Shown here: positions 7,967 to 24,411 of the stretch, piece by piece
Layout of the letters: every line of letters begins with the position of its first letter
Numbering within the stretch: the stretch's first letter is position 1
DNA from: Candidatus Methanoperedens sp.
GTDB taxonomy: Archaea; Halobacteriota; Methanosarcinia; Methanosarcinales; Methanoperedenaceae
Assembly (NCBI GenBank): GCA_027460535.1
Contig: JAPZAR010000020.1
Span: forward strand, 41,640-73,639
Reading direction: 5' to 3'
Length of the DNA: 32,000 bases
Notes under the pieces: model-generated
What the model was told of the DNA's origin: nothing
Seen by the model: the letters and a program-made list of their open reading frames with translations, nothing else
Database searches by the model: none
Made by a program: the position numbers and the translations under genes

Positions 7967-8920
7967 ATGCAAGTAAAATTTAGTACAATAACTTTTTTAG
8001 TATTAACGGGAATCCTGTTCTTGATCCCACAGGCTGTGGCTTCTGAAAATTCATGCATCGATTGCCATAAAACATTATCTCCATTCCTTGAAGTACAGAA
8101 ACAGTTTAACCAGATAAGGATAGAGCATCTTGAGAGAAACGTTTCCTGTTCACTCGAATGCCATGAAGACAGGGTAAGGCAGCTTGCTACCGCAAATTAT
8201 CAGCAGTGGTCAGAGTCACTTCACGGTCTGAAGGGAATAACATGTGAAATGTGCCACGGGGGAGATCCAAAGCAAGCCTCAAAAGATCAAGCGCATGTTG
8301 GTATCAAGAAACCTACCGATCCTGAAAGCCCGGTGTATTATACCAACGTCCCCCAAACGTGCGGTAAATGCCATTCAAGAGAATTGGATAATTTCCAGAC
8401 CAGCAAACATTATCAGAAGCTGGAGGCATTACAAACCGCCCCGACGTGTACCACTTGCCATGCACCTCATACTTTCAAGGTATTGAATCCGGAAGAGTTC
8501 AGGAATTTCTGTGGTACCTGCCATTCAATTTACAAAAAGGTCGCACCATACGACATTCCTGCCCAGGCAGACTACCTGCTTGGGAAAGTGAACAAGTTAA
8601 AATTCAATATCGATATGACCCAGCAGGATATCTTCTTTGCCAAGAAGAATGGGACTGACGTAACACAGGCGCAGATGCATACAGATAATGCGATCAATAT
8701 GGTTCAAGCTCTTGCGCCCATGTGGCATGAGTTCAATCTCACGCATTTTGAAGATCAGGTGGATTTGGCCAACAAGGAAATAAATCAGGCCGAAGATATT
8801 GTCAAACCGACACCAGGTCCATCAATAACAGAGACTCCCAAGGCCCCTGGGTTTGTGGGATTAGCAGGAGTTATCTCATTGCTGGCTGTACTGTATATAT
8901 TAAGAAAGAACAGGGAATAA
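7967..8920 (+). CDS. secreted multihaem c-type cytochrome (5 CXXCH + 1 CX3CH) with PGF-CTERM-type anchor
   Basis: Signal peptide ending AVA/SE. Haem motifs are CIDCH, CSLECH, CEMCH, CGKCH, CTTCH and CGTCH. The C-terminus has a haem-free helical region, then a PTPGPSITETPKA linker, PGF, a hydrophobic helix and RKNRE. Confidence 0.9.
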   Translation: MQVKFSTITFLVLTGILFLIPQAVASENSCIDCHKTLSPFLEVQKQFNQIRIEHLERNVSCSLECHEDRVRQLATANYQQWSESLHGLKGITCEMCHGGDPKQASKDQAHVGIKKPTDPESPVYYTNVPQTCGKCHSRELDNFQTSKHYQKLEALQTAPTCTTCHAPHTFKVLNPEEFRNFCGTCHSIYKKVAPYDIPAQADYLLGKVNKLKFNIDMTQQDIFFAKKNGTDVTQAQMHTDNAINMVQALAPMWHEFNLTHFEDQVDLANKEINQAEDIVKPTPGPSITETPKAPGFVGLAGVISLLAVLYILRKNRE

Positions 8921-8956
8921 AAACTTGATAAAAACGATATTCGGTCACATATACAG

Positions 8957-9415
8957 GTGAAATTAATGCAGCCACACTTGAAACGGGCTTTTATGCTGTT
9001 GTTCATTGCAATAATCGGGTTTATATTCGTAAGATCCCTGATAGTTCCCGAAACCTTCGGTCAGTACGGGTGGTACAGGGGTAACTCTGTTAATGATCTC
9101 AGAAATCTACCCGTAGAACATGCAGGCTCTGCAAGTTGTGGTGAAGAAAGTTGCCATACGACTATCTATTCGATCTGGAGCACCTCAGGGCATAAAACAG
9201 TCAATTGTGAAACCTGCCATGGAGCTTCGGAGAACCATGTCAGTAATGTAAGGATAATGCCTACGCCGGCAAACGCTTCAAGGGATTTCTGCGGCCTGTG
9301 TCACTTTAAGCGGATATCACGACCCTCTGATTTCCCGCAGATAGATCCGGAATCCCACGGTGAAAATTTACAATGTACTTACTGCCATAACCCGCACAAA
9401 CCGTGGTTCGTATAA
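8957..9415 (+). CDS. small membrane-anchored multihaem cytochrome c (3 CXXCH + 1 CX4CH), DsrJ/NrfB-position subunit
   Basis: N-terminal TM helix (AFMLLFIAIIGFIFV). Haem motifs are CGEESCH, CETCH, CGLCH and CTYCH. The start is GTG at 8957 or ATG at 8966, and the next gene begins 3 nt after its stop. Confidence 0.85.
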   Translation: MKLMQPHLKRAFMLLFIAIIGFIFVRSLIVPETFGQYGWYRGNSVNDLRNLPVEHAGSASCGEESCHTTIYSIWSTSGHKTVNCETCHGASENHVSNVRIMPTPANASRDFCGLCHFKRISRPSDFPQIDPESHGENLQCTYCHNPHKPWFV

Positions 9416-9418
9416 GGG

Positions 9419-10198
9419 ATGATTAACATGAGCTTATCAAGACGAGAATTCACGAAATTCGGATGCAGGGTTATCATAGGGGCAGTAGCGGGCAGTGCTG
9501 TTGTAGAATCGATTGTAACAAACGGCAGTGCAGCCAAGGATCCCCCCCCTGCTGAATATGATTGGAACAAGCATTACTGGGGCTATGTCATCGATACCCG
9601 AAAATGCATAGGATGCGGCAGGTGCGCGAGAGCATGCAAGCTTGAGAACCATGTCCCTTTTGACGAACCCGTTTACAGGACATGGGTTGAAAGATACAGG
9701 GTCCTGAAAGAGGGGGAAGTCAAAATAGATTCACCCAATGGAAGCATAGATGGGTTTACGGATGATATCCCGGACGATGAAATCAAAAAAGCCTTTTATG
9801 TTCCCAAGATATGCAACCATTGCGACAGCCCACCCTGTGTTCAGGTCTGTCCCGTTGGGGCCACATATGAGACAAAGGATGGGGTCGTGCTTGTAGATTA
9901 TGATTACTGTATCGGCTGCCGCTACTGTATCCAGGGGTGCCCTTATGGTGCCAGATATTTTAACTCTGAAAGGAAGACAGCTGACAAATGTACCTGGTGC
10001 TATCACAGGATCACAAAGGGTCTTCTGCCCGCCTGCGTACAGGCATGTCCGGTGGGCGCCAGGATATTTGGGGATTTGAGAGATCCAGACAGCGCGGTCA
10101 ATAAGATCCTGGATAAGGAAAGGATCAGTGTTCTTAAAATTGACCTGGGAACGAAACCCAAGGTATATTATGTTGGATTGGACATGGATGTGAAATGA
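9419..10198 (+). CDS. Tat-exported 4x[4Fe-4S] ferredoxin-type subunit (NrfC/DsrO/PsrB/HybA family)
   Basis: Twin-arginine motif SRREFTKF. There are four Cys clusters: CIGCGRCARAC, CNHCDSPPCVQVCP, CIGCRYCIQGCP and CTWC...CVQACP. An alternative start is at 9428. Confidence 0.9.
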   Translation: MINMSLSRREFTKFGCRVIIGAVAGSAVVESIVTNGSAAKDPPPAEYDWNKHYWGYVIDTRKCIGCGRCARACKLENHVPFDEPVYRTWVERYRVLKEGEVKIDSPNGSIDGFTDDIPDDEIKKAFYVPKICNHCDSPPCVQVCPVGATYETKDGVVLVDYDYCIGCRYCIQGCPYGARYFNSERKTADKCTWCYHRITKGLLPACVQACPVGARIFGDLRDPDSAVNKILDKERISVLKIDLGTKPKVYYVGLDMDVK

Positions 10199-11367
10199 TG
10201 GAGAGTTTGATCTGGGGATACATATACCCAAATGAAGCTGAAATACAATGGAGCGTACTGATCGTATTATATCCATATATAACCGGGCTCGTAGCGGGAG
10301 CTTTTATCGCATCATCGCTGTATCATGTTTTTGGAAAAAAAGAGATAAGGCCTGTTGCCAGATTCGCGCTACTTACGGCACTCTCTTTCCTGTTAGTCGC
10401 GACAATGCCGTTGCTTACACATCTTGGGCATCCAGAGCGAGGGATCGAGATCATGTTCACCCCTCATCTTACCTCCGCAATGTCGGGATTTGGATATATA
10501 TATTCGTTTTATCTGATTGTGGTCGTGCTTGAAATCTGGTTATCCTTCAGAGAGGACATAGTCAAGATGGCCCATAATTCCAGGGGATGGAAAGAACTAT
10601 TATACTCGGCGCTGGCTCTTTTCTCATACGATATTTCAGAAAAGGCCTTGCATCAGGATGAAAAACTCGCCAAAAGGCTTGCAATAATAGGAATTCCTTC
10701 CGCAGCTTTCCTTCATGGATATGTGGGTTTCATATTTGGTGGGATCAAGGCGAATCCCTGGTGGTCTACCCCGCTTATGCCTCTCATATTCCTGATGTCA
10801 GCCATTGTATCGGGGATAGCTCTTCTGATCCTGCTGTATATTGCGGCCATGAAGATACGAAAACATGCTATAGACCACAAATGCCTTCATTCACTGGCAC
10901 ATTACCTGTGGATTTTCCTGATATTGGACTTCACACTGGAAATGCTTGAGATCATCAGCATGAAATATGAGTCGCTTGAGCGGATCGATATAATCAACAG
11001 GCTTCTTTCCGATAAGATCGCCACTACTTTCTACGGTGTTCAACTTGGATTGGGTATTTTCATCCCGTTCATTCTTATTCTTCTGGTGGGTATGATGAAG
11101 AATCGTGAAACGCTGAAGATGATAATGATCGCGATTTCATCCATTTTTGTCGTGATAGGCGTGTTCGCGATGAGATGGAATGTTGTAATTGGAGGGCAGG
11201 AGATCTCAAAGAGCCTCAGCGGAACCCTTACCTATGTTCCGGTTTTCTTCAGCCAGGAAGGTGTGCTGCCAGCGATTATAATAATGATAATTCCTTTCAT
11301 CATCCTTTTAGTTGTAACGTACATACTTCCACCATGGAAAGATATGGATGAAGAGGTTGCGGAATAA
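10195..11367 (+). CDS. NrfD/PsrC/DsrP-type polytopic membrane quinone-interacting subunit
   Basis: 390 aa and almost entirely hydrophobic helices. It has an ATGA overlap with the FeS gene and the family-typical gene order after an NrfC-like protein. Confidence 0.88.
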   Translation: MMESLIWGYIYPNEAEIQWSVLIVLYPYITGLVAGAFIASSLYHVFGKKEIRPVARFALLTALSFLLVATMPLLTHLGHPERGIEIMFTPHLTSAMSGFGYIYSFYLIVVVLEIWLSFREDIVKMAHNSRGWKELLYSALALFSYDISEKALHQDEKLAKRLAIIGIPSAAFLHGYVGFIFGGIKANPWWSTPLMPLIFLMSAIVSGIALLILLYIAAMKIRKHAIDHKCLHSLAHYLWIFLILDFTLEMLEIISMKYESLERIDIINRLLSDKIATTFYGVQLGLGIFIPFILILLVGMMKNRETLKMIMIAISSIFVVIGVFAMRWNVVIGGQEISKSLSGTLTYVPVFFSQEGVLPAIIIMIIPFIILLVVTYILPPWKDMDEEVAE

Positions 11368-11470
11368 ATTTTAAAAGACAAAAAAATTCACTAATCGTAA
11401 GGTATTTATTGTATTAGATCGTCAGATTATTAAAATTTGCCAGATTGAAAAACGGGTACTAGGTTTTGGC

Positions 11471-11538
11471 TTATAGGAATTACTTGAAGATAGGATATTT
11501 AATGGAAGATATGAATATTTAGGAAGATAGGATATTTA
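11471..11538 (+). promoter_or_regulatory. tandem 18-19 bp direct repeats (GAAGATAGGATATTTA x2 exact, 1 degenerate, 1 partial) upstream of the second cytochrome block
   Basis: Exact copies lie at 11486-11501 and 11523-11538, a degenerate copy at 11505-11521, and a partial copy (TATAGGAATTA) at 11471-11482. Each unit carries a TATA-like ATATTTA, and the start codon is at 11566. Confidence 0.6.
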
Positions 11539-11565
11539 TCATCACAATAACGGTGGAAGCGAAAA

Positions 11566-12531
11566 ATGTTTTTGAAAACAAGAAGACAAAAAAATACATG
11601 CATACGGATTTCCCTTTGCTGCTTATTCCTTGTATATTTCGTGGGTTCTGCAGGGGCATCACATTTAGACGTTCTCAATAACTCATGCGTTGACTGCCAT
11701 AAGGCTTTGTCTCCTTTTACAGATGAGCAGAAACGATTTAACGAAATAAGAATTAATCATACCGAAAGGAACATATCATGCTCTCTTGAATGCCATGAGG
11801 ATGTCATTAGGAAAAGAGCTTCGGATAATTTTCAGCAGTGGTCAGATTCCACCCATTCAATATATTATGTCACATGTGACAAATGCCATGGCGGGGATGC
11901 GCGCGCGAACACAGAATCGGGAGCCCATGCCTCAATGAAAAATATAACCGACCCGAATAGCACCATTTATTTTAAGAACATCCCGGAAACATGCGGGAAA
12001 TGCCATACTGCAGAACTTGACCATTTCAAGAACACCATGCATTACCAGAGATTGAGATCCACATCACAAGGTCCATCCTGTACAACCTGCCATCAACCTC
12101 ACAGTTTCAAGGTGCTCAAATCCTCGGAGCTGACCAATCTGTGCAGTGCTTGCCATAATTCAGTAGATCAGATAGCAACAGCGAGCGTTCCGCAGGATGC
12201 AAAAAAGGCTCTCGAAAAGGCGGGTGAATTCCAGGCAGAGGTAATGAAAGCGAAAAATGCCATTGCCGATGCCAAAGCAAAGGGAAATGATATATCTTCA
12301 GCACAGATGAATCTGGACAAGGCAAATGCAGTACTGGATGAGATTCCTTCCCTGTGGCATGGATTTGATCTGAAGAACTTTGACGAGCAAATCCAAAGCG
12401 GAGTGGATTGGGCCAAAAAGGCGGAATACGAGGCTTCGGGCGCAGAACCCACGGTGCCGCGAGCTTCATGGCCAGGGATAGTCCTGTTGTTCGGGATTTT
12501 TGCGATAATATATTTGATAAAGAAACGGTGA
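11566..12531 (+). CDS. secreted multihaem c-type cytochrome (5 CXXCH + 1 CX3CH), paralog of 7967..8920, C-terminal PGI-hydrophobic-KKR anchor
   Basis: Haem motifs are CVDCH, CSLECH, CDKCH, CGKCH, CTTCH and CSACH. It is collinear with the first paralog, with roughly half the residues identical by eye across the haem domain. The C-terminus is WPGIVLLFGIFAIIYLIKKR. Confidence 0.9.
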   Translation: MFLKTRRQKNTCIRISLCCLFLVYFVGSAGASHLDVLNNSCVDCHKALSPFTDEQKRFNEIRINHTERNISCSLECHEDVIRKRASDNFQQWSDSTHSIYYVTCDKCHGGDARANTESGAHASMKNITDPNSTIYFKNIPETCGKCHTAELDHFKNTMHYQRLRSTSQGPSCTTCHQPHSFKVLKSSELTNLCSACHNSVDQIATASVPQDAKKALEKAGEFQAEVMKAKNAIADAKAKGNDISSAQMNLDKANAVLDEIPSLWHGFDLKNFDEQIQSGVDWAKKAEYEASGAEPTVPRASWPGIVLLFGIFAIIYLIKKR

Positions 12532-12543
12532 AAGGTACATTCA

Positions 12544-13644
12544 ATGGATAAAATATCATCTACAACAATCATAAAGAATTGGATTTCAGCAAATAAGGTT
12601 CCAATAATTATAATATTAGTAGTCATGTTCTCAGCAGTGGTAGTAGTTTCTGAGAAAATGCTTGAAATAACCGAGAATCCTGCTTTCTGCGGGAAGAACT
12701 GCCATATTATGAGGCCTTACTATGACTCATGGCGAACTTCCTCGCATAATGATGTTCGATGTGTGGAATGCCATTATGAACCCGGGTTAATCGGGCATAT
12801 CAAAGGCAAGATCAATGGACTAATGCAATTCTACAGCTATGAGACGACAGTTGATGAATATTCAGGCCAATTATATGCTAAGGTCATGGACAAAAACTGC
12901 CTTGCCTGCCATGAGAAGCATATCTTTTCTTCAGATATCGGTTACATGGGCGTGAACTTCAGCCATAAAAATCACCTGCTCGAATCCAAAAGAGGAATAT
13001 CACTAACATGCACGAGCTGCCACTCCATGCTTGTAATAGGGATGAGAGAACATCAGTCAGTAACAGATCCTACATGCATGCAGTGCCATCCTAATATGGC
13101 GAGCAACGATGTCGGGCATATCGTGGTCACGAATTCAACATGCTTTACATGTCACTTCAGGGATGTGGCGGGCAATACGTCAATATCCGGCTGCCCCTCC
13201 TGCCACGGTCCACCGAAGGAAATGACGCACAGCAATTATACGAACTTCAATCATACAAGTCATTTGAGCCGGGGATTTGAATGCCTGACCTGCCATACCA
13301 ATATATCAAGCAATGCTAATGACATTGTTCCGAAAGAGAAATGCTTCTCCTGCCACAATGTCAAGGAGAGAGTTGACAAGTACGATGATTTCAGCTTAGT
13401 GCACAATACCCATGTCACGAACAATAAGATCGCATGCTACAACTGTCACTCCAATGTTCTGCATTCACCGGAAATAAAAAAGGACCTGTGTGCCAATTGT
13501 CACGGCAATGAACATCCGAGCGATTGGTTAAAAACACATAAGACGCAGGTTTTGATTGGTAAAGTTTGCAGTGACTGTCATCAGCCCAAGTTCTGCGCAG
13601 ACTGTCATGCCACCGGAGTAGCAAATGGGAAAATAGCAAAATAA
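12544..13644 (+). CDS. NapC/NirT/NrfH-type membrane-anchored multihaem cytochrome, extended to 13 haem motifs
   Basis: TM helix VPIIIILVVMFSAVVVV followed by the NapC-like FCGKNCHIMRPYYDSWRTSSH. There are 12 CXXCH motifs plus 1 CX3CH in 366 aa. Confidence 0.9.
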   Translation: MDKISSTTIIKNWISANKVPIIIILVVMFSAVVVVSEKMLEITENPAFCGKNCHIMRPYYDSWRTSSHNDVRCVECHYEPGLIGHIKGKINGLMQFYSYETTVDEYSGQLYAKVMDKNCLACHEKHIFSSDIGYMGVNFSHKNHLLESKRGISLTCTSCHSMLVIGMREHQSVTDPTCMQCHPNMASNDVGHIVVTNSTCFTCHFRDVAGNTSISGCPSCHGPPKEMTHSNYTNFNHTSHLSRGFECLTCHTNISSNANDIVPKEKCFSCHNVKERVDKYDDFSLVHNTHVTNNKIACYNCHSNVLHSPEIKKDLCANCHGNEHPSDWLKTHKTQVLIGKVCSDCHQPKFCADCHATGVANGKIAK

Positions 13645-14734: not shown

Positions 14735-15694
14735 ATGAATATCGGAAAATTGAGATTGAACGGATGTCTCCTCCTTGCCCCCATGTCCGGAGTCACCAAC
14801 TTGCCAATGAGGCTTCTCTGCAAAAAACATGGTGCCTCCCTTGTGTACTCTGAAATGGCCTGTTCTGAGGGAATCGTAAGAAAGAACCCGAAGAGTATCG
14901 CAAGGGGCGTTACCTGCATGGATGAGCGGCCTTTTGGTATCCAGTTACTTGGTTCCAGTGCCGACGCCCTGGTGAGATCAGCCTCCATCCTTCAAGAAAT
15001 CCACATGCCTGAACTTATAGATATGAATTTTGGCTGTCCTTCCCAGTGTGTTCTTAGAAATGGGTTCGGGTCGGCGCTTTTAAAAAAGCCGGAGGAGGTC
15101 GAAGATATAATAAAAAAATTATCGGGATCTCTTGATGTGCCTGTGACTGCAAAGATAAGAGTGTTGAATAGCCATGAAGAAACACTGAAAATAGCACGTA
15201 TCATTGAAAAATCAGGGGCAAGCGCGATAACAGTTCACGGGAGGACACCAAAACAGCAGTACTCAGGAAAATCAAACCTTGAGATAATCAGGAAAATAAA
15301 AAACGAGCTTTCGATCCCAGTGATTGCAAACGGGGATATCTCTGATGAAAAGCAAGCCGAGCTTGTGCTGAAATACACGCAGTGCGATGGGATAATGATA
15401 GGAAGGGCTGCCATCGGTAATCCATATATCTTCCGCAGGATCGCACATTATCTCGATACGGGGGAACTATTACAGCCACGAACGTTCGGGGACCAGATAG
15501 GAGAATTTTTTGAGTATGCAGCTTTATGCAGCAAATATGATATGATGGCTTATAGTGATTTGAAGCTTAAAGCCCAGTGGTTCCTGAAAAAAAGGGAAAA
15601 TATAAGATCCGAGCGCAAAAAGATAAACGAAGCGAAGGATATCGATATGATATTGAAAATCATGAGTGGATTGAGGGAGGAATCTTCGGGGTAG
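14735..15694 (+). CDS. tRNA-dihydrouridine synthase
   Basis: Contains LLAPMSGVTNLPMRLLC, the GCP catalytic Cys region (DMNFGCPSQCV) and the TIM-barrel FMN motifs ITVHGRT and IANGDI. Confidence 0.9.
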   Translation: MNIGKLRLNGCLLLAPMSGVTNLPMRLLCKKHGASLVYSEMACSEGIVRKNPKSIARGVTCMDERPFGIQLLGSSADALVRSASILQEIHMPELIDMNFGCPSQCVLRNGFGSALLKKPEEVEDIIKKLSGSLDVPVTAKIRVLNSHEETLKIARIIEKSGASAITVHGRTPKQQYSGKSNLEIIRKIKNELSIPVIANGDISDEKQAELVLKYTQCDGIMIGRAAIGNPYIFRRIAHYLDTGELLQPRTFGDQIGEFFEYAALCSKYDMMAYSDLKLKAQWFLKKRENIRSERKKINEAKDIDMILKIMSGLREESSG

Positions 15695-15741
15695 TTTCGC
15701 TCACACATATCTTTAATACAAAAAAACATATTCTAAATCAT

Positions 15742-17451
15742 ATGAAAGGCTGGGCAGGCAGGATCATAGAGATAGATCTGACTGATGAGAAGATCACAGA
15801 AACAAAGAGTGATTTAAGTACACTTCATTACTTTATCGGAGGGAGAGGGCTGGGAGTTAAGCTGTATTATGATGCTGTGAGCACCGATATCGACCCCTTG
15901 GGCCCGGAAAATTTCCTTATATTCGCGACTGGCCCTCTTACCGGAACGGGGGCTCCCATGTCGGGCAGGCACGCTATGGTATCAAAATCCCCACTTACAG
16001 GAACGATATTTGGTTCCAGCAGCGGGGGTTTTTTCGGGAAAGAGCTAAAGTTCGCAGGGATAGATGCGCTTTTGATAAAAGGGGCTTCAGAGGAGCCATC
16101 TTATATTTCTATCGAGAACGAAAAAATTGAGATACATCACGCAGAACAATTATGGGGAGAGAACGTCAGGGCATGCACGGATAAACTCTTATCTAAAGGG
16201 CGCGTTGCATGCATCGGGCGGGCGGGGGAGAGGCTTGTTCCCATTGCAAATGTCATGAATGATTACTTTCATGCCGCAGGGCGCGGAGGTCTGGGTGCGG
16301 TAATGGGTTCAAAGAAGCTCAAGGCGATCGTGGTGAAAGGGGACAGGAGACCATCGATTGCGGATGAAGCGGGGTTTGAGGAAGCCTGCCAGGATGCGCT
16401 CCGTCTTTTGAAATCAGGATCTTCAAAAGGTCTGTCCACATACGGGACTTCAGCTATGGCGAGCCTGATGAATTATACGAAAATATTGCCCACGGGGAAC
16501 TTTCAGAGAAGTGAATTTAGCGGTATGGATAAAATTTCAGGCGAATTCATCAAAGAAAATTATGATATTAAAGGACATGCGTGTTATAATTGCGTTGTGG
16601 CGTGCAAGCACATAATTAAAAGCGGAGCAATGGAAGGATACGAAGTCCCGGAATACGAAACCCTCTGGGCCTACGGGCCTGATAATAACAACGCGGATAT
16701 GGATATGATAATCAGGGCCAACCGCTTCTGCAATGATTATGGGATAGATACTATATCCTCCGGTTCTACCATTGCGGCGTATGCCGAGATAATGGGCGAG
16801 GATATGAAAGAGTTATCCGGGCTTGTAAAAAAAATCGGCGAGAATGAAGGTATCGGCAAAGACCTTGGAAAGGGTTCAAAGACATTTGCGCAATCGCGTG
16901 GAAAAGATGTCGCGATGCATGTAAAAGGGCTTGAGATCCCGGGATACGACCCAAGAGGAGTGCTGGGCATGGCGATTGCCTATGCCACTTCCAATCGAGG
17001 AGGATGCCATCTGAGGGCATATACGGTGGCGCCAGAAGTCCTCGGCAGGCCGGAAAAGGTAGACAGGCTGACGTTTTCAGGAAAAGCAGGACTTGTGCAG
17101 GTATTACAGAATGCCTCTGCGTCCCTGGACTCACTGGTGCTGTGCAAGTTCGTATCATTTGCGATCTCGGAAAGAGAATTAGCAAATCTTCTAAGTACTG
17201 CAACCGGTGTGGATTATTCCACAGAAAAATTCTTGAAATGTGGCGAGAGGATATGGAACCTTGAAAGGCTGTTCAATAATAAAGCGGGGTTCTCGCGAAA
17301 GGACGATTGCCTTCCTGAGCGATTCTTCGGGAATGAGGGAATAAACAGGGCGGAATTTGAAAAAGCGCTGGATGAGTATTATCAATTAAGGGGCTGGGAT
17401 AAGAATGGGGTACCGACACAGGAGAAGTTGAAAGAATTGAATCTTGCGTAG
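15742..17451 (+). CDS. tungsten-type aldehyde:ferredoxin oxidoreductase (AOR family)
   Basis: Family N-terminus MKGWAGRIIEIDLTDEKI, the Fe-S ligand region CYNCVVACKH and AYATSNRGGCHLRAY. The track ORF from 15577 overlaps the end of the Dus gene and is an upstream extension. Confidence 0.9.
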   Translation: MKGWAGRIIEIDLTDEKITETKSDLSTLHYFIGGRGLGVKLYYDAVSTDIDPLGPENFLIFATGPLTGTGAPMSGRHAMVSKSPLTGTIFGSSSGGFFGKELKFAGIDALLIKGASEEPSYISIENEKIEIHHAEQLWGENVRACTDKLLSKGRVACIGRAGERLVPIANVMNDYFHAAGRGGLGAVMGSKKLKAIVVKGDRRPSIADEAGFEEACQDALRLLKSGSSKGLSTYGTSAMASLMNYTKILPTGNFQRSEFSGMDKISGEFIKENYDIKGHACYNCVVACKHIIKSGAMEGYEVPEYETLWAYGPDNNNADMDMIIRANRFCNDYGIDTISSGSTIAAYAEIMGEDMKELSGLVKKIGENEGIGKDLGKGSKTFAQSRGKDVAMHVKGLEIPGYDPRGVLGMAIAYATSNRGGCHLRAYTVAPEVLGRPEKVDRLTFSGKAGLVQVLQNASASLDSLVLCKFVSFAISERELANLLSTATGVDYSTEKFLKCGERIWNLERLFNNKAGFSRKDDCLPERFFGNEGINRAEFEKALDEYYQLRGWDKNGVPTQEKLKELNLA

Positions 17452-17841: not shown

Positions 17842-18675
17842 TCATTCACAAACAGGAAATATTTTATCTTTCAAGTTTGTTTCCAGATCCTGTTTCATTG
17901 TTTCAATAACATTGTTAATAATGCCCTCGACTTCTTTCTTTAATACGTCGTCATTTTTGAAAAAATCATCGTCTGTTTTTGCATTATATTGTGCGCCATG
18001 AGTTCTATATACAAAACCGAACGGAGCAAGAACATACCCCATTTGCTGAAAATAAATAAAAATGTCCAATGCCGTTTTCATTCCTCCATCCTCATGGCCA
18101 TTGACTAAAATCCCAACAACTTTTCCAGTAGTTAAGCCTTCTTTTTTCAGTAAATAAAGATTTTGAAGGCATGTCAGCCTGTCCAGAAAATCCTTTAATC
18201 GCGCAGAAATATTATTCCAATTTATAGGAGAAGCCACGATCACTGCTTTGGAATCAACTATCATCTCATGGAGTGCAGGCGCATCATCCAGCTGGTTCCT
18301 GCATGGGTATGTGCATGCAGAATCCCTCATACTGTAGCAGCACCAGCAGTGTTGAATATCCAATTCGTTCAAATTAAACAGTCTATAACTCACGCCTGTT
18401 CTTTTAAGAGCTTTTTCTGCCAAACTTACTAAAACTCCAGTATTATGACCTCTGTGAGAACTTCCATTAATCAATAAAACATCAAATTTTTCCCCATCGT
18501 ATCTGAGTTTTTGCTTATCATTTAGTTCCGAATATTCTTTAGAAGAACTACTGCATTGGGGACATTCTTCCGGAGGCTCATTTCCCTTATGGATATACCC
18601 GCACACGCTGCATTTCCAGGCTTTACTTTTTTGCAAGCTGATCTTTTTCGTTTCCGCGGATGCAGTAGTAAACAT
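17842..18675 (-). CDS. rubredoxin-like zinc-ribbon domain fused to a flavodoxin-like FMN reductase / iron-sulfur flavoprotein (ISF-like)
   Basis: WKCSVCGYIHKGNEPPEECPQC is followed by FDVLLINGSSHRGHNTG and a compact Cys motif HCWCCYSMRDSACTYPC, as in ISF-type proteins. The start is ambiguous: ATG at 18675, the frame is open to 18756, and a TTG lies nearer 18640. Confidence 0.75.
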   Translation of the reverse strand: MFTTASAETKKISLQKSKAWKCSVCGYIHKGNEPPEECPQCSSSSKEYSELNDKQKLRYDGEKFDVLLINGSSHRGHNTGVLVSLAEKALKRTGVSYRLFNLNELDIQHCWCCYSMRDSACTYPCRNQLDDAPALHEMIVDSKAVIVASPINWNNISARLKDFLDRLTCLQNLYLLKKEGLTTGKVVGILVNGHEDGGMKTALDIFIYFQQMGYVLAPFGFVYRTHGAQYNAKTDDDFFKNDDVLKKEVEGIINNVIETMKQDLETNLKDKIFPVCE

Positions 18676-18850
18676 GTCTAAACCCCATTTTTTCGTGAAC
18701 CGGACAGCCCGGGCACAAACATCCTTTTTCCTCTTTAATGCATTTGCTTTTTCCAATTGTCGAAAGACAAAATGCTATTTCTTCCCTGCATTCGATATAT
18801 GTGGGACAAAGCCCGCATATGCATAACTTAATGGCTTCTTTTTTATCCAT
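18623..18850 (-). CDS. small Cys-rich protein (DUF2769-like)
   Basis: 75 aa. CICGLCPTYIEC...FC...GKSKCI...GCLCPGCPV matches the pattern I associate with DUF2769. Confidence 0.7.
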   Translation of the reverse strand: MDKKEAIKLCICGLCPTYIECREEIAFCLSTIGKSKCIKEEKGCLCPGCPVHEKMGFRHVYYCIRGNEKDQLAKK

Positions 18851-19042
18851 ATTATCTCCTATAACCGCAATATATTGATTTTATTGATTATGTATTTTAG
18901 CTATTCGGATTAATTAGATATACTGATAAAGAAAATCCTCTCTCCAATATAATTACCCTTGCCCTGATCTGCTATAGATGAACTTAATTATATTTACGAT
19001 GCGTGATCAGTAGAAAGTGTAGGTTGCCTGCCATATTTCATT

Positions 19043-20419
19043 TCAGAACACTGATACGGATTTGATGTTCATGAATTCATAGAGCCCGAATTTAGAAAGC
19101 TCCCGTCCAATACCGCTTTTCTTAATCCCTCCAAAAGGCAGGCGTGGATCGGATTTAACAAGGGAATTTATGACTACAACTCCTGATTCAAGTTCCCTTG
19201 ACAAATGAATACCTTTATTAGTGTCCTTTGTCCATAAACTTGCACCAAGACCCAGCTCTGAATCATTAGCAATCCTTATCGCTTCTGCTTCATCTTTAAC
19301 TGGAATTACTGGTGCTACCGGGGCAAATGTTTCCTCATTTATAACTTTCATTTCTTTTGTTACATCAGTAAGGATAACAGGGGAATAAAAATACCCATTT
19401 CCAGGAAGTCTTCCTCCTCCGAGTAACACTTTTGCACCCTTTGATAACGAATCCTTCACCTGATCCTCAATGATCTGGATCTGTTCTTTTCTTACAAGGG
19501 GACCCATGTCAGTATCTGGATTCATTGGATCTCCGACCTTGAGTTTCGAAGCAATTTCCACGAACTTTGAGGTGAACTCTTCAGCAATACTTTGTATAAC
19601 GATGAACCGTTTCGCAGCGATACAGCTCTGACCAGCATCCTGGAACCTGCTCAAAACCGCGATCTTTGCAGCCTGTTCAATATCAGCATCTTCAAGTACG
19701 ATGAAAGGATCACTTCCACCAAGTTCGAGAACGAACTTTTTCATGTTCTGTCCGCAAACTTCTGCCACCTTTTCTCCTGCAGAAACGCTCCCTGTCAATG
19801 ATACTGCATCTATCTCTTTTCTCTCGATAAGCGACGATGCTGTTGGCCCATCAATAAGCAGCGTCTGGAAAACCCCTTCGGGAAATCCAGCATCTGAAAA
19901 TACTTTTTCAATTTCAAGTGCACATAATGGGACGTAGCTTGAATGTTTAAGAAGAACAACATTTCCCCCAGAAAGAGCAGGAGCAGCAAAACGCAGTGCC
20001 TGCCAGAAAGGAAAGTTCCATGGCATGATGCACAGTATTGTCCCCCGCGGTTCAAATGAGACATACGCTTTCTTCGCGTCCGTTTCCACAATCTGGGGTT
20101 CTAAAAATTTCTTTGCATTCTCTGCAAAATACTCAAGAGCCCAGGCACATTTTTCAATCTCTGGTATTGATTCTCTTATGGGTTTACCCATTTCCGTAGT
20201 GATGATTTCGCCAAGTTCCACCTTTCTTCTTCGTAATACTTTTGCGGCGTTAATGAGATGTTTTCCTCTCTCAGATACGTCAAGCCTTTTCCAGTCCGAA
20301 AATGCATCTTTTGATCTCTTAATCGATTCATTTATCCTTTCTTGCGAATAAAACTCAAATTCCCTATTTACATCCCCGGTAGCAGGATTAATAGATACCA
20401 TCTTTTTCATGTATTTCAT
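19043..20419 (-). CDS. NAD(P)-dependent aldehyde dehydrogenase, succinate-semialdehyde-dehydrogenase-like
   Basis: 458 aa with the short-N-terminus SSADH-like form (SINPATGD). Contains ELGGSDPFIV and the catalytic GQSCIAAKRF. Confidence 0.9.
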   Translation of the reverse strand: MKYMKKMVSINPATGDVNREFEFYSQERINESIKRSKDAFSDWKRLDVSERGKHLINAAKVLRRRKVELGEIITTEMGKPIRESIPEIEKCAWALEYFAENAKKFLEPQIVETDAKKAYVSFEPRGTILCIMPWNFPFWQALRFAAPALSGGNVVLLKHSSYVPLCALEIEKVFSDAGFPEGVFQTLLIDGPTASSLIERKEIDAVSLTGSVSAGEKVAEVCGQNMKKFVLELGGSDPFIVLEDADIEQAAKIAVLSRFQDAGQSCIAAKRFIVIQSIAEEFTSKFVEIASKLKVGDPMNPDTDMGPLVRKEQIQIIEDQVKDSLSKGAKVLLGGGRLPGNGYFYSPVILTDVTKEMKVINEETFAPVAPVIPVKDEAEAIRIANDSELGLGASLWTKDTNKGIHLSRELESGVVVINSLVKSDPRLPFGGIKKSGIGRELSKFGLYEFMNIKSVSVF

Positions 20420-20616
20420 CTCCTTTTGTTATCTAACATATTCCTGAGGAACGTATGCAAGATTCCTCCATTTCGATAAAAATCTAGTTCAACAGGTGCG
20501 TCAAGTCTTGCTATAACGTTGAAGATCTTGTCTTTTCCATCAACTTTTGCAACTACCCGCAGTTTTCCTCCCGGCTTTAGACTACCGATGCCAGAAATGT
20601 CAGAGATCTTTTCCAC
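20416..20616 (-). pseudogene. orphan fragment corresponding to the last ~60 aa of aconitate hydratase (swivel-domain C-terminus)
   Basis: LKPGGKLRVVAKVDGKDKIFNVIARLDAPVELDFYRNGGILHTFLRNML matches the conserved AcnA C-terminal tail (..R.DT.VE..Y...GGIL..VLR.L). Only 66 aa are present. It has an ATGA overlap with the downstream ALDH. Confidence 0.6.
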
Positions 20617-20800
20617 CCCATGTGATGGAATACTGATTATAGTCTCCCATTATTGCAGAAGCAGCAGCGCGTTTAATCTCATCAGGGACAGGAAAATCTG
20701 GAAATCCCTGGGCAAGGTTGACGGCATGACGTGTTACGGCAAGCCGTGACATATCACGAATTACCGATTCGGTAATATGTTCTAATCTGTGAGATAACAT
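20600..20800 (-). pseudogene. N-terminal ~65-aa fragment of a class I/II (fold-type I) aminotransferase
   Basis: From the ATG at 20800: MLSHRLEHITESVIRDMSRLAVTRHAVNLAQGFPDFPVPDEIKRAAASAIMGDYNQYSITWG, the typical aminotransferase N-terminus. The frame then terminates at 20600, so there is no PLP-lysine region. Confidence 0.6.
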
Positions 20801-20802
20801 GG

Positions 20803-21501
20803 TCAATACCCTGGAAAATTTTCTTGATGGATCATATCGTCTTGAATTTCCAATGTTTTGAGAATTTCTACAGAACTTGTTACAAGGGACGACGGACCGC
20901 AAACATAAAAAACACATTCTTTATAATCTGGTATCTCTTCTAAGACCATCTGGACGTCTATATGTCCACGCCTTCCTTTCCATTTCTCATCTGGCTGGGA
21001 CAGTGTATGGATTACCCTGAGGTTTTGATTTAGCTTTTCCAGGCGATCCAGTTCTTCCTTGAAAACTATGCTTTCTTGATTCCTGTTTCCATATAAAAAA
21101 GTAATACGGGATTTCATTTCATTATCCGTGCAATATTTAATCATGCTCCTAAGTGGCGTTATCCCGATACCCCCCGTTATCATCCCTACTCTGGGATATT
21201 CACCGTTGAACGCAAAATTCCCGTATGGCCCATCAAGGTATGCCCAATCCCCTATTTTGAGCCTGTCAAGAGCAACTGAGAACTCATGGTCTGTAATCTT
21301 TTTTGTGAATTCAATAAACTCCTTTTCCGTTGGACTGCTTGAGATCGTAAAATGCTTAGTGATTTTATTACCCTCGCTGAGAATTGTTACGAATAAAAAT
21401 TGACCGGGATCGTAATCAAAACCTTGTGGTCTTCTAAACCTGAAGCTCTTTACATCGTGTGTTCGTTTGATTATCTCGGAGACACTGGTTTCTAATTTCA
21501 T
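20803..21501 (-). CDS. FNR-like FAD/NAD(P)-binding oxidoreductase
   Basis: The FAD-binding barrel has the FNR-type FAD-binding motif as KHFTISS (in GNKITKHFTISSSP). The NAD-binding motif is GGIGITPLRSM. Size is 232 aa. Confidence 0.85.
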   Translation of the reverse strand: MKLETSVSEIIKRTHDVKSFRFRRPQGFDYDPGQFLFVTILSEGNKITKHFTISSSPTEKEFIEFTKKITDHEFSVALDRLKIGDWAYLDGPYGNFAFNGEYPRVGMITGGIGITPLRSMIKYCTDNEMKSRITFLYGNRNQESIVFKEELDRLEKLNQNLRVIHTLSQPDEKWKGRRGHIDVQMVLEEIPDYKECVFYVCGPSSLVTSSVEILKTLEIQDDMIHQENFPGY

Positions 21502-21504
21502 AAA

Positions 21505-21837
21505 TCAACAAACCTCTTTTCTACTGCTATCGAACTCGGTCGCCTCCTTCGTTAAAAAGTACCCCATCACCGTTCTGATGCTGACAGTAGCGCCAAGAAA
21601 GATAATCTCTTCCTGGCTGGGAGCAACAATTGTCTTCAAAATATCACTGGCAACGAGAAAGTCCAATCCAAATACGATCTTATGTGTGAAATCTCTGCGA
21701 ATATCATGAAAACTGAGTTCTATTGACCTTTTCAATTCCAATTGCAAAGTTTTGATTATTGTTAAAATCCCTCCGTAAAGTATAATTGCAGCTCCAATAT
21801 ATGCAAAAAGTATTGACGATATATCTATGATTTCCAT
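21505..21837 (-). CDS. small integral membrane protein (DUF1622-like)
   Basis: Two or three TM helices and the conserved-looking LDFLVASDILKTIV...LGATVSIRTVMGYFL. Its stop lies 3 nt before the FNR-like start. Confidence 0.7.
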   Translation of the reverse strand: MEIIDISSILFAYIGAAIILYGGILTIIKTLQLELKRSIELSFHDIRRDFTHKIVFGLDFLVASDILKTIVAPSQEEIIFLGATVSIRTVMGYFLTKEATEFDSSRKEVC

Positions 21838-21882
21838 ATTGTATCACCTCTCACCATTATTCTTTCATAGTTATTACATGTC

Positions 21883-23076
21883 TTAATGTCTTTTTGCACC
21901 AGTGAGACTTCGCATGCTTTCCTGGTTCTCCTGAAATGAAAGATAAATTTCGCGTTTTGCCAACTCCCCAAAAAACAATTCGGGATTTATACACAGTTCA
22001 GGAGGCATGACACCACGCTTTTCAATTTTTTTTTCGGTAATCATTTGTGCGATTATTGACGGCGGCACGCCGGTATCCCAGGTACCTGCTGGTATATTCC
22101 ACCTGGAGTTTGATCTTGATTCACAGTATACTACCACATTCCTTGTCTTTCGGTTGCTCTTTCCCCTCAATTCCACTCTCAGGAACTCTACATCTTTTAT
22201 CCTGTCTTTTTCCGGAATAAACCTGTTCAACAAACTGACGGTAAAGTCAAGGGGAACAACGTCAAAGTTCTTATATTTCACAGGAGTTGTTGACGCAAAA
22301 CCGGTGTCTATGAGGAACTTAATTCTTTCAACAAACTCTTTCGGGAAACCACCTTTAAAGCTGCAATTCTTGATACCTTTATCTTTGAACGATGAAGGGA
22401 AAGTAGCGACTTCTGAATGGAGCGTATAAAAACATGTAGCACTGTTCACAGGTGAAGGAAACTCGATTTCCTCTTCCCCGGTAAGGGGCTTCACGAATCT
22501 TATTTTTCCGCCAGAGAATATCGCCGGTTCCATTGAAAATTCATCAAATATCGTACGCATCGAGTATGGAACCACAAATGGCATACTGTACTTCGTATAA
22601 TCCTTGTCAGCGAAATACACACGTATGGAGTCTATGGCATCAAGGAATCCCGAACCGTAGGCAGCCATTATGTTTGTAATTCCTGGCGTTGCACCACATC
22701 CCACAACAGCAAGAATATTTTTCTTTTTGAAACTTGAATCCAATTTCAATTGCTTTTTGGTCATGTGAAAAAGACCGCCAAGGTCAACATAATTCACTCC
22801 TGCGGAAAGCGCCGCTTCCATTACCTGTAAATTGGTGGTGTATTGGGTTGCATTGATTACAACATCAGAGCCTTTCAGGAGTTCTATCATTTTTTCCACT
22901 TCATCGGCATCTGCTTTTGCATGCATGATATTTTTACTGTTGAAGGATTCTGCAAACATTTTTGCTTTTTCTTCATTCCTGCCTGCAACGACAATCTTTC
23001 CTTTGAATGTTTCCAATAGATCAATTACCGTTATCCTCCCCATTTCCCCGTATCCGCCCAGGACGATAATTTTCAT
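21883..23076 (-). CDS. saccharopine dehydrogenase-family NAD(P)-dependent oxidoreductase
   Basis: Rossmann N-terminus MKIIVLGGYGEMGR, VINATQY...VNYVDLGG and GCGATPGITN, typical of Sacchrp_dh-type enzymes. It has a 4-nt overlap with the upstream aminotransferase. Confidence 0.85.
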   Translation of the reverse strand: MKIIVLGGYGEMGRITVIDLLETFKGKIVVAGRNEEKAKMFAESFNSKNIMHAKADADEVEKMIELLKGSDVVINATQYTTNLQVMEAALSAGVNYVDLGGLFHMTKKQLKLDSSFKKKNILAVVGCGATPGITNIMAAYGSGFLDAIDSIRVYFADKDYTKYSMPFVVPYSMRTIFDEFSMEPAIFSGGKIRFVKPLTGEEEIEFPSPVNSATCFYTLHSEVATFPSSFKDKGIKNCSFKGGFPKEFVERIKFLIDTGFASTTPVKYKNFDVVPLDFTVSLLNRFIPEKDRIKDVEFLRVELRGKSNRKTRNVVVYCESRSNSRWNIPAGTWDTGVPPSIIAQMITEKKIEKRGVMPPELCINPELFFGELAKREIYLSFQENQESMRSLTGAKRH

Positions 23077-24401
23077 TTCATTGCACCAATAGATTCACTC
23101 AATGCCTCCAGTGTTTTGTTTAAATCATCTTTAGAATGGGAATATGAGGTGTATATCGCTTCCTCGCCATCTTCGTCGATCATAATACCTCTCTTTAAGA
23201 GTTCATATTGGACCTTTGTAAACTGTTTCATATCACAATGAGCGAGGTCTCGATAATTTATTATTTTCTCCTTCTCTGTAAAGAGATACTGGAACATTGT
23301 TGGATAACCATGGACAACATGAGGGATTTTATGGTCGTCAAGGATTTCATCGATGCCTTTCATCATGCTTTTCCCATAATTTTCAAGATGAGCCCATACG
23401 CTATCCTTTTCAAGTTCTTCTAAAGTAGCCTTGCTGGCAGTAAGCGAAACTGGATTTGCAGAATATGTACCGCCATGCATGACTTTCCCGGGTCCTATCA
23501 GCTCCATAATATCTTTTCTTCCCCCAAAAGCTGCTATTGGATATCCATTTCCCAGTGATTTTGCAAACGTCGAAAGATCTGGATATACCCCAAAGAGCTC
23601 TTGAGCTCCACCTTTCCCAAGCCTGAATCCGGTCTTTACTTCATCGAAAATTAGGATAATATCATATTCTTCGCACAGTTCTTTTAGATATTTCAGGTAG
23701 CCGTTTGCCGGAGGGATGGCAGAGCAATTTCCCATAACTGGTTCTGTAATTATTGCTGCAACATCCTTGTAATTCTCTTTCACAATATATTCAATTTCTT
23801 CTGGTTTATTCCACTCGCAAACCAGCGTATATTGAGACATACCCTTTGAAATACCCCATGAAGCAGGAATTGCTTCTCTTGGGGATTGATATCCGGGTTT
23901 CGTGGAAAACGCAACAGCATCATGCCATCCGTGATAATGCCCCTCGAACTTTATTATCTTGTCCTTTTTTGTGAATGCCTTGGCGACCCGTATTGCTCCC
24001 ATCGTTGCCTCTGTTCCAGAGCCCGCAAACCTGAGCATATCAATTGATGGCACAAAATCTATTACTGTTTTTGCCACGTCGATCATAAGCTCATTATCAG
24101 AAGCATATACCAGACCCTTCTCATCTGCTTTATGCACAGCTGTATGTATTTTTCTATAACTGTGACCAAGTATGACCGGGCCATAACCCAACCGGTAATC
24201 TACATATTCATTTCCATCTACATCCCAGATATGAGACCCGAAAGCTTTTTCAATGAAAATGCTGCAGGGTCCGAACTCATGACAGACACTTTTCATGAGC
24301 CTTGCGTTTGATCCCACTCCTCCTGGGATGATTTTCGAGGCTTCCGTATACATCGCCATTGATTTATCCAACTTAAATTGTTTTGTCATATTATTCTTCA
24401 T
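23073..24401 (-). CDS. class-III (HemL/GSA-aminomutase-like) PLP aminotransferase
   Basis: Contains IIPGGVGSNARL, GSGTEATMGAIRVARAF-like (AGSGTEATMGAIRVAKAF), DEVKTGFRLG and the PLP-Lys region FAKSLGNGYPI. The track start at 24455 would overlap the upstream ALDH, whereas the ATG at 24401 lies 8 nt after its stop. Confidence 0.9.
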   Translation of the reverse strand: MKNNMTKQFKLDKSMAMYTEASKIIPGGVGSNARLMKSVCHEFGPCSIFIEKAFGSHIWDVDGNEYVDYRLGYGPVILGHSYRKIHTAVHKADEKGLVYASDNELMIDVAKTVIDFVPSIDMLRFAGSGTEATMGAIRVAKAFTKKDKIIKFEGHYHGWHDAVAFSTKPGYQSPREAIPASWGISKGMSQYTLVCEWNKPEEIEYIVKENYKDVAAIITEPVMGNCSAIPPANGYLKYLKELCEEYDIILIFDEVKTGFRLGKGGAQELFGVYPDLSTFAKSLGNGYPIAAFGGRKDIMELIGPGKVMHGGTYSANPVSLTASKATLEELEKDSVWAHLENYGKSMMKGIDEILDDHKIPHVVHGYPTMFQYLFTEKEKIINYRDLAHCDMKQFTKVQYELLKRGIMIDEDGEEAIYTSYSHSKDDLNKTLEALSESIGAMK

Positions 24402-24411
24402 ACGAATTCCT

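Follow-up and report, generated by a model that had tools for sequence, protein, structure and literature searches.

Methanoperedens archaea oxidise methane with nitrate, iron, manganese or electrodes, and the way electrons leave the menaquinone pool is the least understood step of that chain. To our knowledge, no menaquinol complex of the kind considered here has been purified from any anaerobic methanotrophic (ANME) archaeon. We analysed 32,000 nucleotides (nt) of a Candidatus (Ca.) Methanoperedens assembly (GCA_027460535.1, contig JAPZAR010000020.1, positions 41,640 to 73,639 of the forward strand), hereafter the window, in which six plus-strand open reading frames (ORFs), A to F, occupy positions 7967-13644. 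These genes make up the "group 1 menaquinone:cytochrome c oxidoreductase" cluster already described for Methanoperedenaceae, one of five published candidates and transcriptionally the Fe(III)-responsive one. We argue that it probably provides two separable menaquinol-oxidising entry points into an extracytoplasmic multihaem network, a two-module refinement that is a modest, testable addition to an already described cluster with transcriptomic support.

Gene and domain content of the island

The features of the island, with the evidence for each, are as follows.

A, 7967..8920, plus strand: exported hexahaem c-type cytochrome (haem motifs, signal-like N-terminus, C-terminal transmembrane segment)
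B, 8957..9415, plus strand: small cytochrome with one N-terminal transmembrane helix and four haem motifs (motif and hydropathy scans)
C, 9419..10198, plus strand: iron-sulfur (FeS) protein of NrfC/PsrB/DsrO/TtrB type, exported by twin-arginine translocation (Tat) (profile matches, Tat motif, Cys groups)
D, 10195..11367, plus strand: NrfD/PsrC-family integral membrane subunit (PF03916, hydropathy)
D-E spacer, 11368..11565, no strand: candidate internal promoter or regulatory region for E-F (sequence, repeat, alignment with the Ca. M. nitroreducens locus L007)
E, 11566..12531, plus strand: hexahaem cytochrome, paralog of A (motifs, paralogy, signal-like N-terminus, C-terminal anchor)
F, 12544..13644, plus strand: 13-haem membrane cytochrome (PF03264, TIGR03153, PDB chain 2j7a_C, fold match)

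The ORFs encode 317, 152, 259, 390, 321 and 366 amino acids (aa) and are separated, from A to F, by 36, 3, -4, 198 and 12 nt; we refer to A-B-C-D as block 1 and to E-F as block 2. The four cytochromes (1156 aa) carry 25 CXXCH, three CX3CH and one CX4CH motifs, distributed as five CXXCH plus CSLECH in each of A and E, three CXXCH plus CGEESCH in B, and 12 CXXCH plus CGKNCH in F. This CXXCH density is far above chance (mean 0.19 and maximum 3 in 5000 shuffles of the four cytochromes), and both the CSLECH of A and E and the CX4CH of B are kept in orthologs. A motif scan detected no CXXCK across the six island proteins. Layout, gaps and motif counts are exactly those of the original prediction, which was made by a model from the letters of the window and a list of its ORFs. 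Its A-B gap of 36 nt holds for the B ORF that opens at GTG 8957, but widens to 45 nt if B starts at ATG 8966, as gene callers and all orthologs (149 aa) have it; the latter is most likely the true start, giving a protein of 149 aa.

The block 1 content that had been read from the sequence, comprising a hexahaem cytochrome, a transmembrane small cytochrome, a Tat-exported 4x[4Fe-4S] protein and an NrfD subunit, is supported by profile, motif and hydropathy scans. C bears the Tat motif SRREFTK, and its 16 Cys fall into four cubane-binding groups. It scores 98.6 bits against Fer4_11, 206.6 bits against the NCBIfam DsrO model (just above the cutoff of 200) and 228.9 bits against the TtrB model (below the cutoff of 416), and it matches PsrB in the PDB (2vpw_B, E-value 5e-47). 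D belongs to the NrfD/PsrC family by its PF03916 score (160.8 bits, threshold 25.8) and has ~9-10 hydrophobic segments, one Cys and no cofactor motifs. It lies far under the NCBIfam equivalog cutoffs for NrfD, DsrP, HmcC and TtrC (66.9 bits vs 347.6 for NrfD, 40.9 vs 350 for DsrP), and neither sequence nor profile search returned a PDB match. D is the presumed menaquinol site of block 1. B has no match to the DsrJ or NrfB models. Weak local matches of B to the N-termini of octahaem nitrite reductases in a PDB search (E-value 0.006) were judged uninformative.

A and E share 41% identity along their whole sequences, and the hydropathy scan places a signal-like N-terminal segment and a C-terminal hydrophobic anchor on each. 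The C-terminus of A consists of a three-helix domain, a Thr/Pro-rich linker and a PGF-type hydrophobic anchor, with P294-G295-F296 near-invariant after the linker in the family alignment, which suggests that A may be lipid-anchored in archaeosortase fashion. Against the PGF-CTERM model TIGR04126 the tail of A scores 18.8 bits (cutoff 24.5), and the tail of E, with a degenerate 'WPGI' motif, gave no PGF-CTERM match. Archaeosortase A and multihaem cytochromes with such tails have been reported in ANME-2d genomes (Timmers 2017). In view of their C-terminal anchors, A and E would more aptly be called membrane-tethered, on the outer side of the cytoplasmic membrane, than cell-surface proteins; the earlier description of them as 'surface' cytochromes was right about a paralogous hexahaem pair but too strong about location.

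The family alignment of A contains 12 invariant His: six belong to haem motifs and six lie outside them, H254 of the C-terminal helical domain among the latter. Together they are enough for bis-His ligation of all six haems, and A and E look like pure electron carriers from their sequences. An alternative, that A and E are cryptic, truncated reductases of NrfA or HAO type and that E-F is a degenerate NrfHA-like catalytic pair, seems to us barely credible. It could appeal to the name "nitrite reductase c552 subunit" given to A homologs P0280 and P0327, to the position of the E gene beside that of an NrfH-like protein, to a weak profile match to NrfA chains (E-value 0.02) and to weak matches to the NrfA family PF02335 (A 18.8, E 20.1 bits). 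Yet these PF02335 scores stay below the cutoff of 24.1 and span ~65 of 438 profile positions, A and E have 317 and 321 aa as opposed to the ~450-520 aa of NrfA, and both are free of CXXCK, which together place them outside NrfA. The exact agreement between six invariant non-motif His, as distal ligands, and six haems likewise speaks against a catalytic haem. The fold search points the same way: with the AlphaFold2 model of A (mean predicted local distance difference test score (pLDDT) 63, haem domain <55, only the C-terminal helical bundle confident), Foldseek returned nothing significant, and weak MccA, HAO and NrfA rows at E-values of at least 0.8 were disregarded.

F comprises one transmembrane helix (~residues 13-43), a NapC/NirT-NrfH-type tetrahaem domain (residues ~21-162; motifs at residues 49, 73, 119 and 156, the first being a CX3CH that reads CGKNCH-I-M) and a 9-haem c3/c7-like extension. 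A scan of full-length F reported no NapC/NirT Pfam match. Residues 1-185 alone reach 36.8 bits against PF03264 (gathering cutoff 24.1, profile positions 11-166 of 174). Against the NrfH equivalog TIGR03153, F scores 71.6 bits (E-value 6e-20, positions 4-134 of 138), below the cutoff of 134.2, and by sequence it matches Desulfovibrio vulgaris NrfH (2j7a_C) with an E-value of 6.5e-5. The same chain is the sole PDB fold match of the AlphaFold2 model of F (target template modelling score 0.72, probability 1.0). This model, built on a 33-sequence alignment, has a mean pLDDT of 59 and is usable for ~residues 1-100, so it says nothing about the nine-haem extension. Met56 of F aligns with NrfH Met49, the haem-1 ligand in the CH-x-M motif, and is invariant in 33 homologs; Lys89 aligns with NrfH Lys82 and is kept in 32 of the 33. 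The quinol-site role of this Lys, NrfH Lys82 and a reported Lys91 in CymA, is taken from the literature (PMC2762525; Arshad 2015). Judged by profile, alignment and model, the N-terminus of F is a genuine NapC/NirT-NrfH domain, in keeping with the 13-haem NapC/NirT-type protein originally proposed. F is not NrfH proper, given its sub-cutoff equivalog score, the Gln that replaces Asp89 and a partner devoid of CXXCK.

The CX3CH at the quinol-proximal haem of F arises from a one-residue insertion present in 16/16 archaeal homologs and in 0/17 bacterial homologs, which have CXXCH. The haem motif at residue 178 is also confined to the archaeal clade. The insertion, the clade restriction of the residue-178 motif and the retention of CSLECH and CX4CH are possibly new observations.

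Distribution of the two blocks and their expression

We scanned species-representative genomes for F and located A-E around each hit with tblastn. The scan yielded 59 loci, all from Methanoperedenaceae-type metagenome-assembled genomes (MAGs), in the following arrangements.

A-B-C-D-E-F complete: 24 loci
A-F arrangement cut by a contig end: 3 loci
E-F without block 1 (4 kb or more of upstream sequence): 9 loci
Full-length F without E: 4 loci
Shorter F-like proteins (~60-90% of F matched): 10 loci
Uninformative: 9 loci (7 with short upstream sequence, 1 with D and F and no detected E, 1 with no qualifying F match)

Both blocks are present in 27 of the 40 informative Methanoperedenaceae loci, E-F only in nine and F alone in four. 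E-F and A-B-C-D are separable blocks. The side-by-side arrangement, which the original prediction had singled out as unusual, is instead the commonest state within this family and had already been tabulated as one cluster; the neighbourhood comparison that the prediction called for shows the block pairing conserved in those 27 loci. Together with an F domain above the PF03264 threshold and a fold match to NrfH only, the existence of E-F without block 1 upholds the idea of two different quinol-dehydrogenase modules. With 687 aa in its two proteins, E-F is a small unit that also stands on its own in nature, and genomes with only E-F or only F are natural controls.

In Ca. M. nitroreducens (L007) the same six genes stand in the same order, with identities of 72, 77, 76, 86, 69 and 77% from A to F; the upstream neighbours differ from those in the window and the downstream methyltransferase is shared. 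Locus L039 corresponds to strain ANME-2d. Two of the E-F-only loci are convergent to a cytochrome b-like protein and an unrelated 6-haem cytochrome, and two others have housekeeping neighbours only. The F-alone copies adjoin 12- and 16-haem cytochromes of 730-920 aa. An archaeal metagenome contig (L011:5711-13070) carries A-, B-, C- and D-like genes of block 1 (D 63% identical) that are not followed by E-F. They are followed by a hexahaem cytochrome of the A/E family (42-43% identity), two small ORFs, a Rieske protein and a split cytochrome b, and the Rieske/b6-type cluster ("group 5" in the table of Leu et al.) thus adjoins group 1 in this contig.

Outside the Methanoperedenaceae, the closest NrfD relatives are Chloroflexi proteins with 57% identity, encoded alongside orthologous FeS (53%) and small-cytochrome genes; the latter specify a 194-aa six-haem protein that is 36-39% identical to B. 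These syntenic Chloroflexi clusters also hold a cytochrome b, a NapC/NirT-type 8-haem protein and 7-, 15- and 9-haem cytochromes. Full-length bacterial homologs of F (~35% identity, 570-630 aa) occur in Bipolaricaulota and Blastocatellia among cytochrome b, Rieske/cytochrome b and multihaem genes.

The group 1 gene set of Leu et al. (2020, mBio, Data Set S1A; PMC7327174) lists NrfD, 4Fe-4S, 3-heme, 6-heme, 13-heme and 6-heme proteins, with M.Nitro_00590-00595 consecutive. The island has the same six products in the same order (6-haem, 3(+1)-haem, 4Fe-4S, NrfD, 6-haem, 13-haem), and its contiguous gene set, orthology and synteny with the Ca. M. nitroreducens cluster make it a member of group 1. 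We found no structural difference between them, and the island is another species' copy. The published table also records exceptions to contiguity (PMC7327174): CMD-1 has a 13-haem gene without a listed E homolog, CMD-2 has an E-F pair without the NrfD block, and in Mn-1 and Mn-2 the blocks lie apart from each other.

Expression data were taken from Zhang et al. (2023, Nat Commun; PMC10542353), who assign Methanoperedens_02260, 02261, 02264 and 02265 (12, 5, 3 and 5 CXXCH) to group 1 and in whose data all four cytochromes peak on soluble Fe(III) in Ca. M. nitroreducens. Values from that paper, in transcripts per million (TPM), are:

02260, F homolog: iron 1687, electrode 100, nitrate 362
02261, E homolog: iron 2063, electrode 174, nitrate 502
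02265, A homolog: iron 1603, electrode 126, nitrate 1459

Leu et al. (2020, ISME J; PMC7082337) also report high expression of the NrfD/FeS/3- and 6-haem operon while Mn(IV) is being reduced.

The D-E spacer is 105-551 nt long in 27/27 loci with both genes, and the E-F gap is 7-26 nt in 42/42. Two AT-rich boxes in the spacer, TCGTAAGGTATTTATTG (~11395-11411) and AGGATATTTAA, are conserved with Ca. M. nitroreducens. A tandem repeat of GAAGATAGGATATTTA.. at 11486-11539 (~2.9 copies, 17-18 nt period) ends 27 nt upstream of the E start codon, and one of its copies is the conserved AGGATATTTAA. The boxes and repeat could be an archaeal TATA or regulator site for block 2, and the spacer is accordingly annotated here as a candidate promoter. 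A cis-element shared upstream of both blocks was considered and found no support: the repeat motif is confined to the D-E spacer, and 3/100 shuffles gave two matches with at most 3 mismatches by chance.

Because the A homolog stays high on nitrate where E and F fall 4-5 fold, the D-E spacer is always long and its AT-rich boxes are conserved, the blocks are probably separate transcription units, co-induced on Fe(III). Separate units argue for two modules and not against a conduit. The original prediction had counted absence of block co-transcription among the findings that would refute it; such absence would refute only a single-complex model.

In such a model, A to F would form one obligate supercomplex in which D is the sole quinol site and F is a membrane-anchored haem wire, its NapC-like domain having lost quinol binding. 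The contiguity of the six genes in 27 of the 40 informative loci, the joint rise of the four cytochromes on Fe(III), their tabulation as one cluster by Leu et al. (PMC7327174) and the presence of a NapC-type multihaem cytochrome in the Chloroflexi clusters that carry the NrfD/FeS/small-cytochrome trio are all consistent with it. We nevertheless consider it unlikely. E-F lacks block 1 in nine loci and F stands alone in four, the published table separates the blocks in CMD-1, CMD-2, Mn-1 and Mn-2, and the D-E spacer never falls below 105 nt as opposed to 7-26 nt between E and F. On nitrate the A homolog reaches 1459 TPM vs 502 for E and 362 for F, and the equivalents of NrfH Met49 and Lys82 are kept in F.

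Proposed electron routes and related systems

Pfam scans of 20 other ORFs of the window found no molybdopterin CISM subunit, NrfA or DsrMK/AB. We also inspected by annotation 7-10 kb on each side of the cluster in eight contexts (this window and loci L007, L010, L011, L012, L013, L014 and L015), and none encodes a terminal reductase of the molybdopterin, NrfA-type or Dsr kinds. The island had been predicted to be without a catalytic subunit, and none appears in the window or in the seven other contexts; because no inspected context has one, the homologous clusters are not always attached to a reductase, the circumstance that the prediction had named as fatal to it. The locus is not DsrMKJOP, as C passes the DsrO model, D is far below DsrP, no DsrM/K-like genes occur in the window and B has no DsrJ match. 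Nor is it a CISM-type molybdoenzyme, with no molybdopterin oxidoreductase domain in the window or the seven contexts.

The two entry points that we favour can be set out as routes, for which we infer the direction of electron flow, the carrier order, the subunit contacts and any proton-motive coupling. In module 1 (B-C-D with A), menaquinol would be bound and oxidised at D, and electrons would pass to the four-cluster FeS protein C at the outer face, then to the membrane-anchored tetrahaem B and from B to A, the tethered hexahaem. In module 2 (E-F), F would oxidise menaquinol at an NrfH/CymA-like haem-1 site beside its single transmembrane helix, and electrons would run along its 13-haem chain to E. 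From A and E they would reach other cytochromes or reductases encoded elsewhere, e.g. metal-reducing extracellular multihaem cytochromes, possibly Nar or Nrf. The conduit from the quinol pool to the extracytoplasmic side that was originally proposed agrees with the published hypothesis and with the eight contexts free of a terminal reductase.

That hypothesis, of candidate menaquinol:cytochrome c oxidoreductases in ANME-2d genomes, had been mentioned in the original prediction and is indeed found in PMC7327174, PMC7082337 and PMC10542353. Published group 1 is treated there as one NrfD-based cluster, and the two-module view is added here. NapC, NirT and NrfH are not mentioned in the main text of any of these three papers, in that of Chadwick et al. 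2022 or in the supplement of the Leu mBio paper, and it therefore seems that none of them presents the 13-haem protein as a second quinol dehydrogenase.

Several points weigh against two entry points that lead to the outside. We know of no biochemistry for any subunit of the cluster. The haem domains are of low confidence in both models (mean pLDDT 59 and 63), and the haem ligation and subunit contacts given here are accordingly putative. The position of NrfH Asp89 is Gln in F and Gln, Glu or Met among its homologs, and the CX3CH at the quinol-proximal haem, a predicted haem site, is unusual in the Methanoperedens clade. One supercomplex would account equally well for the co-location in 27 of 40 loci and for the co-induction on Fe(III). 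High expression of the A homolog persists on nitrate, so the electron sink need not be extracellular.

This last point leads to the proposal that the modules are general menaquinol:cytochrome c oxidoreductases that feed a terminal reductase encoded elsewhere, such as pseudo-periplasmic Nar or NrfA, rather than extracellular transfer. It partly overlaps the explanation we prefer, and the 1459 TPM of the A homolog on nitrate and the soluble cytochromes proposed as carriers to Nar in Methanoperedens (Arshad et al.) fit it. We regard it as distinctly unlikely, however, since transcripts of the E and F homologs are 4-5 times as abundant on soluble Fe(III) as on nitrate, group 5 (Rieske/cytochrome b) is the most expressed cluster on nitrate (PMC10542353), and Methanoperedens has its own NrfH beside NrfA (Arshad et al.).

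The modules might also run in reverse as Qrc-like quinone reductases, passing electrons from extracytoplasmic cytochromes to menaquinone, e.g. when electrons are taken up or Fe(II) is oxidised. Menaquinone is indeed reduced by NrfD/FeS/cytochrome complexes such as Qrc (PMC13059093), and the NapC/NirT protein ImoA has been proposed to act in an Fe(II)-oxidising chain. Yet menaquinol from methane oxidation must be re-oxidised (PMC7327174, PMC7082337) and expression peaks with Fe(III) as acceptor, which makes reverse operation highly unlikely here.

Several known systems resemble the two modules that we propose. Geobacter sulfurreducens Cbc4, compared by description, shares the B-C-D architecture in its membrane-anchored tetrahaem CbcS, four-[4Fe-4S] CbcT and cofactor-less CbcU. 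Like block 1, it has no catalytic subunit, and it is a proposed quinol:cytochrome c oxidoreductase for extracellular electron transfer. Unlike Cbc4, B has a CX4CH as its first motif, block 1 adds the tethered hexahaem A, and the archaeal host is without an outer membrane. The order of cytochrome c, Tat-exported FeS protein and NrfD-like subunit in block 1 is also that of DsrJOP in DsrMKJOP, of NrfBCD and of ActA/B/C. With alternative complex III the likeness extends to individual chains, in that C matches the FeS part of ActB and the C-terminal region of F matches ActA chains. In contrast to the Dsr, Nrf and Act systems, the island is without DsrMK, NrfA and ActDEF.

For module 2, NrfH (D. vulgaris NrfHA, PDB 2j7a/2vr0) and CymA of Shewanella share with the F N-terminus a transmembrane helix and four haem motifs, and NrfH also shares the CH-x-M motif and the Lys aligned with Lys82. 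F differs from both in its fusion to nine more haems, in the CX3CH first motif of the Methanoperedens clade and in a non-conserved Asp89 position. The partner of NrfH is NrfA, whereas that of F is a hexahaem cytochrome without CXXCK.

ImcH of Geobacter is itself NapC/NirT-related. It is discussed with NapC, CymA and NrfH in Geobacter papers. Zhang et al. (PMC10542353) drew the analogy with Geobacter ImcH/CbcL, in which several non-homologous quinol:cytochrome c modules show acceptor-dependent expression; F is likened to ImcH by concept alone. Unlike ImcH and CbcL, the modules of the island are physically adjacent, each with a paralogous hexahaem.

We tentatively extend the two-module reading further, to two mechanistically different menaquinol exits side by side, each with its own copy of one tethered hexahaem adaptor family and used according to acceptor potential, although here the balance of probability is somewhat against us. 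The NrfD/FeS exit could be coupled to ion translocation, and the NrfH/CymA-type exit, fused to a nine-haem wire, would be electroneutral. By analogy with ImcH/CbcL in Geobacter, the exit could be chosen by acceptor potential, and the Methanoperedens CX3CH insertion at the quinol-proximal haem of F could be a tuning element. The Rieske/cytochrome b module of L011 is likewise accompanied by a member of the hexahaem adaptor family. A/E-type hexahaem cytochromes as universal partners of all quinol modules were considered and rejected: the 6-haem protein beside the cytochrome b-like protein in L018 and L024 is only ~25% identical to A and E, in partial alignments.

Genomic surroundings and further observations

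Positions 195-21367 of the window are identical to contig JAPZAT010000056.1 of another Candidatus Methanoperedens MAG (GCA_027460495.1), with 0 mismatches in 21,173 bases compared. Upstream of the island lie proB and proA on the minus strand, and downstream lie genes for a methyltransferase, Dus and an aldehyde:ferredoxin oxidoreductase. G+C content is 0.438 in the island vs 0.435 in the rest of the window. A recent horizontal transfer or a Borg or plasmid origin found no support, as G+C equals that of the surroundings and housekeeping genes flank the island. Rfam and tRNA scans of the window gave no matches.

Two further features of the window lie downstream.

15577-17451 (gene callers start at 15742), 2 kb downstream of F: aldehyde:ferredoxin oxidoreductase (AFOR_N and AFOR_C domains)
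17842-25905, minus strand: gene run for a rubredoxin-FMN reductase fusion, two aldehyde dehydrogenases, an FAD/NAD oxidoreductase, DUF1622, a saccharopine-dehydrogenase-like protein and a class-III aminotransferase

Between F and the oxidoreductase are the methyltransferase, an oppositely oriented DUF1699 gene and Dus. The oxidoreductase belongs to a cytoplasmic family of pterin enzymes distinct from the CISM-type molybdoenzymes, and in Ca. M. nitroreducens its gene does not neighbour the cluster, so it is not a partner of the island. The minus-strand run looks like an amine or amino-acid catabolic cluster, unrelated to the island.

Re-examination corrects misleading database names among homologs (P0026, P0280, P0327, P0121), which include DnaJ-class chaperone. 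Orthologs of A (P0280, P0327) carry "formate-dependent nitrite reductase c552 subunit", and a D ortholog carries "dimethyl sulfoxide reductase membrane subunit C".

Short proteins of ~200-245 aa (L064-L071 and P0064-P0081) are 47-66% identical to the N-terminal 50-61% of F. They represent a stand-alone quinol-dehydrogenase part of F and share their MAGs with full-length F; GenBank names one of them NapC/NirT family cytochrome c. Second copies of F, ~70% identical and with no adjacent hexahaem, were found at L052:3578-8516 and L056:3126-8106. They are divergent beside 12-haem (905-923 aa) and 16-haem (733-737 aa) proteins, which looks like another downstream partner for the same NapC-type entry point.

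Directly downstream of the Chloroflexi NrfD orthologs, at L012:9162-10505 and L013:9162-10514, lies a gene for a protein of 447-450 aa with 15 CXXCH motifs and no Pfam match, in which the motifs are spaced almost exactly 24 residues apart (100, 124, 148, 172, 199 ... 440).

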